Shown here: piece by piece, positions 58,127 to 59,693 of the stretch
Position numbering within the stretch: position 1 is the first letter of the stretch
Layout of the letters: every line of letters starts with the position of its first letter
NCBI RefSeq assembly: GCF_003334305.1
Contig: NZ_QOWS01000021.1
Direction: 5' to 3' (one strand)
Length of the DNA stretch: 64,000 bases
Source: Escherichia coli
GTDB lineage: Bacteria; Pseudomonadota; Gammaproteobacteria; Enterobacterales; Enterobacteriaceae
Notes under the pieces: generated by a model
What the model saw: the letters and a program-made list of their open reading frames with translations, nothing else
Database searches by the model: none
Told to the model about the DNA's origin: nothing
Translations under genes and position numbers: made by a program

Positions 58127-58143
58127 TTGGAAAATTTTTCCAA
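58127..58143. promoter_or_regulatory. AllR operator-like palindrome in gcl promoter region
   Basis: ttggaaaatttttccaa, near-perfect inverted repeat between allR terminator and gcl start. Confidence 0.6.
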
Positions 58144-58158
58144 CTTTCAAATTTTGTC

Positions 58159-58183
58159 AAAAAAACCCGCTCCGCAGAGCGGG
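58159..58183 (-). terminator. Rho-independent terminator after allR (minus strand)
   Basis: cccgctccgcagagcggg hairpin with A-run on forward strand immediately 5' (U-run on minus strand). Confidence 0.7.
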
Positions 58184-58195
58184 ATGCGACAGACA

Positions 58196-59011
58196 TTATG
58201 GATGTGCTTTCAGTCCCAACGCCGTGCTGATATCGCGGGCGGTGTCTCTGACCAGCTCACCCTGACTGACAAAACGATCTTCTGTCAGTCTTGATGAAGG
58301 CCCGGAGATGGAGATAGCGGCAACAACACTACCTACATCATCGTAAATTGCTGAAGCTAAGCAATTCAGACCTACAACATGCTCTTCTTTATCTACGGTA
58401 TAGCCCAGTTCACGCGCTTGTTCCAGGTCCTTCAGCAAGGTGGGCATATCCACAAGCGTAGTTGGCGTAAACTGCTGCAAACCGGTTTGCAGAATGATGC
58501 TCATCAACTCCTCTTCCGCCAGCGGATAAAGCAGCGCTTTGCCCGCACCGGAAGCATGCAGCGGCAGACGACTGCCCAGTGGCGCACACATCCTGACCAT
58601 CGATTTACACTCTAACTGACCAATTAATACCGCTTCATTGCCGTTACGGATCGCGACATTGACCGTTTCGCCGGAAAGTAACATCAGGCGGCGCATAAAC
58701 GGCCCGGCGACGGAGAGGACATCGCGGTTATGGATGTACGCTGCACCGACGTTAAAGACACCTAATCCTATATGCCACCAGCCTAATTGACTGTCCTGAT
58801 AGACAAAATCCGCTGCCTGTAAAACCTTCAGCAAGCGAAAGGTCGTGGAGAGCGGCAAATCCAGATTGAGAGAAATATCGCTAACCGACGAGCTTCCCCC
58901 ACTTTTTTCCAGATATTGCAGAATCGCAATTCCCCGCTCTAACGCCTGTGCGCCCTTCTGTGCCACAGGCTCCGCCTGTCCTGGCCTGCCGCGCCGTCTA
59001 ACTTCCGTCAT
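58196..59011 (-). CDS. allR: Allantoin regulon repressor AllR (IclR family)
   Basis: 271 aa [65 protein letters not shown]... Confidence 0.95.
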
Positions 59012-59088
59012 ACCTACGTTAACTCCGACCTACAAGTGAGCATAAACAATGAACAATTAGTTTATCTTATGCAAGTCGGTTGCAGGCG

Positions 59089-59571
59089 TCACGCAAAACA
59101 GAGTTCCTGTTCAGGAATACTTTCAACATCACAGTTGTCACTGCCGCCGCGATCGATGGTCAGAAAATCGGTGACGCGCTGCCAGGCGAAAAGTGGGTGA
59201 TGCCAGACGTTACGATGGTAATTCACTCCCTGTTCGCCGTTGGTGATAAACGCCCGCAGCGTTGACAGGTCTGGTTTGTCGTCGCCTAACGCCACGACCA
59301 CCACAAACACTTCACCTTTCATCGGGATAAAGGCCTGAGTGCCCAGCGGATGACGTTCGAGTTCGTGAATGGTCAGCGGCAGATTCGCCGGTTGCGCGCG
59401 GTTAATGCTGATAAGCGTACGGTCTTGCTCAAGAATCTCAACCAGCGCCAAATCGTGGTAACGCTCCACCAGGCCATTGTTAATATGGAAAAAATCCCGT
59501 TGCTGCGTTTCGATTACGTCGCCATAAGCACTAAAGGCTTCCTGACTTAACGGTAATACCTGAAGTTTCAT
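59089..59571 (-). CDS. allA: Ureidoglycolate lyase AllA
   Basis: 160 aa [42 protein letters not shown]... Confidence 0.93.
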
Positions 59572-59676
59572 CTTTTTGTCCTTGTAACATAATTCCGTTC
59601 AACCAGCGCCGACCGGTCAGCTTGGTTTCAATAACAGGCAATCTAAAACCTTAAGAGAACAACATCAATACAAAAG

Positions 59677-59693
59677 TTGGAATATTTTTCCAA
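59677..59693. promoter_or_regulatory. AllR operator-like palindrome in allA-allS divergent intergenic region
   Basis: ttggaatatttttccaa, same TTGGAA...TTCCAA half-sites as the gcl promoter site. Confidence 0.6.

Follow-up and report, generated by a model that had tools for sequence, protein, structure and literature searches.

Are the two matching palindromes that lie upstream of gcl and between the divergent genes allA and allS operators of the repressor AllR, an IclR-family protein whose gene lies between them, and how would a bound repressor act at each promoter? We addressed these questions in the window, as we call the whole 64-kb stretch of DNA that was analyzed, which belongs to the chromosome of a non-K-12 strain of Escherichia coli (about 99.2% identity over 2.1 kb). 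The analysis shows that both palindromes are, with very high confidence, AllR operators, and that they are the AllR operators already published for E. coli, which makes the finding correct but ordinary.

Two palindromes in the gcl and allS/allA control regions

Direct reading of the window gives ttggaaaatttttccaa at 58127..58143 and ttggaatatttttccaa at 59677..59693, which bears out the near-identical inverted repeats that an earlier, sequence-only reading had placed there. The half-sites TTGGAA and TTCCAA that it had described stand as well, with the refinement that the symmetry reaches past 6 nt: the gcl palindrome is a perfect 8-1-8 repeat (TTGGAAAA-T-TTTTCCAA), and the allS/allA palindrome pairs at 7 of 8 positions. 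The gcl palindrome is centered 29 nt upstream of the gcl ATG, within the 89-bp gap that follows allR, while the center of the allS/allA palindrome is 114 nt from the ATG of allA and 116 nt from that of allS. The coordinates of these and all other features discussed here are collected in Table 1.

Table 1. Features surrounding the two very probable AllR operators, in window coordinates
Feature	Positions	Strand	Basis or remark
gcl, glyoxylate carboligase	56325..58106	-	TIGR01504 equivalog; annotation
AllR operator of the gcl promoter, TTGGAAAATTTTTCCAA	58127..58143	.	center 58135; sequence, scan, PWM, K-12
Predicted gcl -10 hexamer AAATTT, inside the AllR palindrome	58132..58137	-	weak consensus match
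Predicted gcl -35 hexamer TTGACA	58155..58160	-	sequence read
allR intrinsic terminator stem-loop	58166..58183	-	terminator scan; stem and T-run kept in orthologues
allR, IclR-family repressor of both operators	58196..59011	-	NCBIfam NF007548 equivalog, RefSeq annotation, translation
allA, ureidoglycolate lyase, target of the 59677..59693 operator	59089..59571	-	NF002948 equivalog; annotation
Predicted allA -10 hexamer TAGATT	59640..59645	-	conserved T, A and TT columns in alignment
Predicted allA -35 hexamer TTGATG	59663..59668	-	conserved TTG block, 21-sequence alignment
37-bp AllR recognition sequence, palindrome exactly central	59667..59703	-	AAATCTAGTTTTGGAAAAATATTCCAACTTTTGTATT, as quoted in PMC13300388, is the reverse complement of the window
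AllR operator common to the divergent allA/allS promoters, TTGGAATATTTTTCCAA	59677..59693	.	center 59685
allS, LysR-type activator of allD, divergent target of the 59677..59693 operator	59801..60727	+	NF007501 equivalog; annotation

To be read as AllR operators, the palindromes have to lie in promoter regions that AllR controls, as the sequence-only reading had maintained, and the identity of the neighboring genes confirms that they do. The four proteins score well above the curated cut-offs of their equivalog models, with 617.7 bits against 406 for AllR (NCBIfam NF007548), 364.7 against 275 for AllA (NF002948), 644 against 372 for AllS (NF007501) and 1281 against 711 for Gcl (TIGR01504), and the RefSeq E. 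coli annotation agrees on gcl, allR, allA and allS. The gcl gene is the first of the operon gcl-hyi-glxR-allW-allB-ybbY-glxK, which is repressed from the 58127..58143 operator, and the remainder of the allantoin cluster, as far as ybcF, extends toward lower window coordinates. The 2.1 kb around both sites is present in 5,405 of 5,426 complete E. coli genomes. At the other end of the window, past mnmH (60796..61890), the stretch from about 62000 to 64000 is annotated with decayed genes: ylbG as a pseudogene, a short fragment of hypothetical function, a member of the YbbD family and the last part of an RHS core protein that carries a frameshift. They are the remnant of an RHS element adjoining the allantoin cluster.

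A motif scan of the window, which had been proposed as a check on the operator reading, singles out the same two positions. With TTGGAANNNNNTTCCAA, both strands of the 64-kb window gave two exact matches, and the pattern TTGGAA-N5-TTCCAA occurs exactly at the two palindromes only; not one exact match of this pattern appeared in 100 dinucleotide-preserving shuffles of the window. Allowing two mismatches added a single match, at 17310, which is at chance level. We further scored the window with a position weight matrix (PWM) made from orthologous AllR sites, under which the gcl site reached 36.3 bits and the allS/allA site 35.2 bits, the next best score in the window being 6.4. Since this next-best score is far below those of both sites, the window contains exactly two AllR sites: neither the mismatch scan nor the PWM found a third anywhere in its 64 kb, the whole allS-to-ybcF allantoin cluster included. 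This agrees with a published report in which AllR neither has a site at allD-allF nor affects allF (PMC12535856).

Conservation in enterobacteria and agreement with published AllR sites

To follow the two palindromes outside E. coli, we scanned species-representative genomes with the AllR protein, which found 22 loci in enterobacteria, besides one weak match that is unrelated. The genera represented are Escherichia, Superficieibacter, Klebsiella, Raoultella, Citrobacter, Buttiauxella, Izhakiella, Atlantibacter and Providencia. Across the orthologous loci, AllR is 67 to 100% identical to that of the window, and the gene order allS, divergent allA, allR, gcl is retained in all of them. The gcl site is present in all 21 loci that cover it and the allS/allA site in all 20, with at most one half-site mismatch in either case; moreover, each covering locus has exactly one TTGGAA-N5-TTCCAA between allS and allA and exactly one between allR and gcl (at most one mismatch). 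The position of the sites is conserved as well. The site center usually lies 27-30 nt from the gcl ATG (range 21-36 nt) and 110-115 nt from the allA ATG (range 101-115 nt), and its distance from the allS ATG spreads over 86-215 nt and is not clustered.

The same picture emerged from MAFFT alignments of the complete intergenic regions, which were built without any motif information. In both alignments the most conserved stretch of 17 columns is the palindrome, and pairwise identity in the half-site columns is 0.99 and 0.975, compared with 0.54 and 0.52 in the remaining columns. The AllR sites are therefore co-conserved with the allR orthologues, at the same relative positions, in 21 loci and about ten genera.

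Two side observations came out of the orthologous loci. The central base of the gcl operator (58135) is polymorphic: read on the gcl strand, the window and K-12 carry TTGGAAAA-A-TTTTCCAA, and the center is T in E. coli strain 3385 (L026) and in Escherichia whittamii (L001). This change is symmetry-neutral, as expected for the center of a palindrome. In addition, a 799-kb contig labelled Chryseobacterium sp. 18061 (L008, CACSKA010000001.1) carries an enterobacterial allS-allA-allR-gcl locus whose gene and operator coordinates are those of Citrobacter sp. 18056 (L020), with nearly equal protein identities to the proteins of the window; the record is probably mislabelled, or derived from a mixed culture.

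We then compared the two palindromes with what has been reported for AllR. The repressor binds both at the gcl promoter and in the control region between allS and allA, its binding is reduced by glyoxylate, and the gcl operon, allA and allS are all repressed by it (PMC12535856, PMC11323563). A 37-bp AllR recognition site, AAATCTAGTTTTGGAAAAATATTCCAACTTTTGTATT, is credited to Rintoul et al. 2002 by PMC13300388, the secondary source on which we rely for its sequence. Both window sites match the AllR motif KTTGGAAWAWTWTTCCAAC (Suvorova and Gelfand 2021, PMC8222616) at 17 of 17 core positions, and at 18 of 19 when the flanking positions are counted. The comparative-genomics supplement of the same study lists AllR sites as 19-mers, namely gTTGGAAAAATTTTCCAAt at gcl -39, TTTGGAAAAATaTTCCAAc at allA -124 and gTTGGAAtATTTTTCCAAA at allS -124, and these are identical to the window sequences letter for letter. 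According to a preprint, moreover, the AllR site in front of gcl is occupied by protein in vivo. Gene identities, published motif, 37-mer and the site lists of PMC8222616 thus all agree with the AllR operator reading proposed from the sequence. Within these two intergenic regions, the secondary sources through which the gcl footprint is known place no AllR site elsewhere.

Both operators are identical in K-12 and in the window, as seen by alignment. The AllR operators of E. coli K-12 (Rintoul et al. 2002, J Mol Biol 324:599; PMC8222616) have the same sequences, the same positions and the same flanking genes as those of the window. While the operators show no difference, the gcl ribosome-binding region differs from that of K-12 by one base, at window position 58117: it reads AAAGGTAGG, compared with AGAGGTAGG in K-12 and in strain 3385. 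The K-12 form AGAGGTAGG agrees with a primer published in PMC13300388.

Other regulators, RNA structure and chance

The palindromes might instead, or in addition, be sites for IclR, a paralogous repressor that likewise responds to glyoxylate and whose box, TGGAAATNATTTCCA (PMC8222616), is nearly the same. Compared with the inner 15 nt of the palindromes, the IclR box shows 2 symmetric differences from the gcl site and 3 differences from the allS/allA site, and AllR itself reaches 246 bits with the equivalog model of IclR, which makes the two proteins close relatives. We nevertheless regard IclR as a very unlikely owner of these sites. The IclR box has T/A at positions 8/10 of the 17-mer, whereas the AllR sites conserve A/T there across genera (all 20 allS/allA sites and 18 of the 21 gcl sites); furthermore, allR accompanies the sites in every locus, and published work gives them to AllR. 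An identity with the IclR box, as found in the aceBAK-type operator, was rejected, the 2 mismatches of the gcl site and the 3 of the allS/allA site falling exactly at the conserved inner positions.

The resemblance to the IclR operator of aceBAK is nonetheless extensive. The two systems share the regulator family, the effector glyoxylate and an A/T-rich palindrome with the same outer TGGAA/TTCCA, and the aceBAK site likewise overlaps its target promoter, to judge from the title of Pan et al. 1996 as cited in PMC8222616. They differ in that AllR sites have A8/T10 where the IclR box has T/A, and in the regulator gene and the regulon. From this sequence comparison, two symmetric base pairs appear to be what separates the sites of the two glyoxylate-sensing paralogues.

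A second alternative is that the palindromes function not as protein-binding DNA but as RNA hairpins, in the leaders of gcl, allA or allS, where they would affect stability or translation. The gcl-side sequence can indeed form an 8-bp hairpin of -6.5 kcal/mol (z = -2.3 relative to shuffles), but the allS/allA hairpins are weak, at -5.4 and -4.4 kcal/mol (z = -1.5 and -1.1), and the stems are invariant, so that no compensatory changes back the pairing. Under the predicted promoter geometry, moreover, the gcl palindrome overlaps the -10 region and the start and would not be fully transcribed, while the allS/allA site would lie upstream of the allA promoter; that the motif recurs in a divergent region that is not transcribed is more readily explained by a DNA site. 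A role in RNA is hence highly improbable. As candidates for a structured RNA element or an intrinsic terminator, the palindromes were set aside on account of their weak hairpins and invariant columns; a terminator scan reported none at either palindrome, its only hit being the allR terminator at 58166..58183.

The palindromes might also owe their symmetry to chance in A/T-rich DNA, or be ordinary promoter or UP-element sequence that no particular regulator recognizes, but this prospect is negligible. Both do occur in promoter DNA rich in A/T, in which short palindromes arise more often than they do in coding regions; however, the 100 window shuffles yielded no exact match, the next-best PWM score is about 29 bits lower, and the half-sites are nearly invariant across genera while the flanking intergenic DNA is about 52-54% identical, and shuffles and conservation together therefore exclude chance.

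A RutR site upstream of gcl is mentioned in one paper; allowing up to 3 mismatches to the RutR box TTGACCANNTGGTCAA, we found nothing near gcl (58107..58195), and the matches elsewhere in the window, at 21865, 48005 and 48252, are at chance level. On the allS side of the allS-allA region, we observed a strongly conserved block at 59729..59750, which reads ATGTAAAAATACTGATAAATCA in the window and has the consensus ATGAAAAAATACTTATAAATCA, together with a conserved CCACA box at 59707..59711. The block and the box are probably elements of the allS promoter or the site of another regulator.

Predicted promoter geometry and proposed mode of repression

How, then, would AllR act from these two operators? 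Read on the gcl strand, the gap between allR and gcl holds the allR terminator stem-loop, its T-run, TTGACA, 11 nt and then the palindrome. A TTG at the -35 column, separated from the palindrome by a gap-free 11 nt, recurs in most orthologues. With a spacer of 17 nt between the predicted -35 and -10 hexamers, gcl transcription is predicted to start near 58125. The 83-bp fragment 58113..58195, which spans this arrangement, has served as gcl promoter in an AllR-dependent lux reporter (PMC13300388). The T-run of the allR terminator continues straight into the predicted gcl -35 (58155..58183), such that terminator and promoter share bases, and the terminator stem, the T-run and the TTG that follows are kept in most orthologous loci.

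The allS-allA region is organized differently. The predicted allA -35 lies 8 nt from the palindrome, downstream of it in the direction of allA, again with a 17-nt spacer to its -10. Relative to this promoter, the operator would consequently be centered near -52, farther upstream than the -35 and outside the classic position for occlusion. On the allS side, inspection by eye of the conserved block 59729..59750 revealed no convincing -35/-10 pair. The hexamers proposed for gcl and allA rest on conservation, and the start positions are predicted; a generic sigma-70 scan of 58000..59900 did not report these hexamers, and its sole match was rejected as the gcl promoter because it overlaps the gcl ATG. 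Promoter hexamers, start sites and the occlusion geometry built on them are thus to be taken as inferred. There is no evidence against AllR binding itself, and the weak points are limited to geometry.

Based on this geometry as well as on the published data, we propose the following model. An AllR dimer would contact TTGGAAWAWTWTTCCAA with one helix-turn-helix per half. At gcl, the operator would overlie the predicted -10 region and the transcription start, 11 nt downstream of the TTGACA -35, and binding of AllR there would exclude RNA polymerase from the gcl-glxK operon by occluding the core promoter. Put simply, since the operator covers the predicted -10 and start, bound AllR would keep RNA polymerase off gcl-glxK. 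In the allS-allA region a single operator would serve the two promoters between which it lies, such that bound AllR would repress both allA and allS; the published 37-bp recognition region would just touch the predicted allA -35. Glyoxylate, the product of AllA, lowers the binding of AllR to DNA and would thereby lead to derepression of gcl, allA and allS, and AllS, once derepressed, would activate allD.

Many regulators of the IclR family, such as TtgV, bind as tetramers to tandem palindromes spaced 18-22 nt apart (PMC8222616). A second palindrome within 12-60 nt of either AllR site was not found, whether in the window or in 21 orthologous loci, and within 60 nt on either side the best secondary score in all loci was at most 6 bits, compared with 22-28 bits for the primary sites. 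A tandem operator, with its partner palindrome 18-22 nt or 3-4 helical turns away, was therefore rejected for AllR, each control region having one isolated palindrome. What the AllR sites share with the tandem-site operators of the family is a palindrome recognized by a helix-turn-helix dimer; what they lack is the tandem partner.

AllR is said, in work attributed to Walker et al. 2006, to be tetrameric without glyoxylate. The gcl and allS/allA operators are 1,550 bp apart in the window and 1,541-1,636 bp apart in the orthologues. We consider it unlikely, though worth stating, that an AllR tetramer bridges the two operators or, alternatively, that the conserved block on the allS side is an auxiliary AllR site. 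Bridging, if true, would loop out allA-allR and couple the repression of all three promoters. As for the block, which lies inside the allS promoter region, it has a weak AllR-like score of 4.3-5.5 bits in several genera (loci L010, L021, L012 and L003), where the 99.9th percentile of the background for such secondary scores is 2.9, and it lies at a fixed offset of 52-53 bp, or about five helical turns, from the allS/allA operator. The equivalent segment in E. coli, at about 59729..59745 of the window, scores -2.0. The block may be merely A/T-rich promoter sequence.

Taken together, these results lead back to AllR as the regulator that recognizes both palindromes. That gcl, allA and allS are under AllR repression, and that glyoxylate lifts it, can already be found in the textbooks and databases on E. 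coli. The value of the finding is as a check on the scan, in that two experimentally known operators were correctly recovered from raw sequence without tools. The comparative data presented here are in line with published comparative genomics and go little beyond it; what they show is that each control region has one palindrome, held at fixed distances from the gcl and allA starts, and that inner positions of the palindrome separate AllR boxes from IclR boxes.
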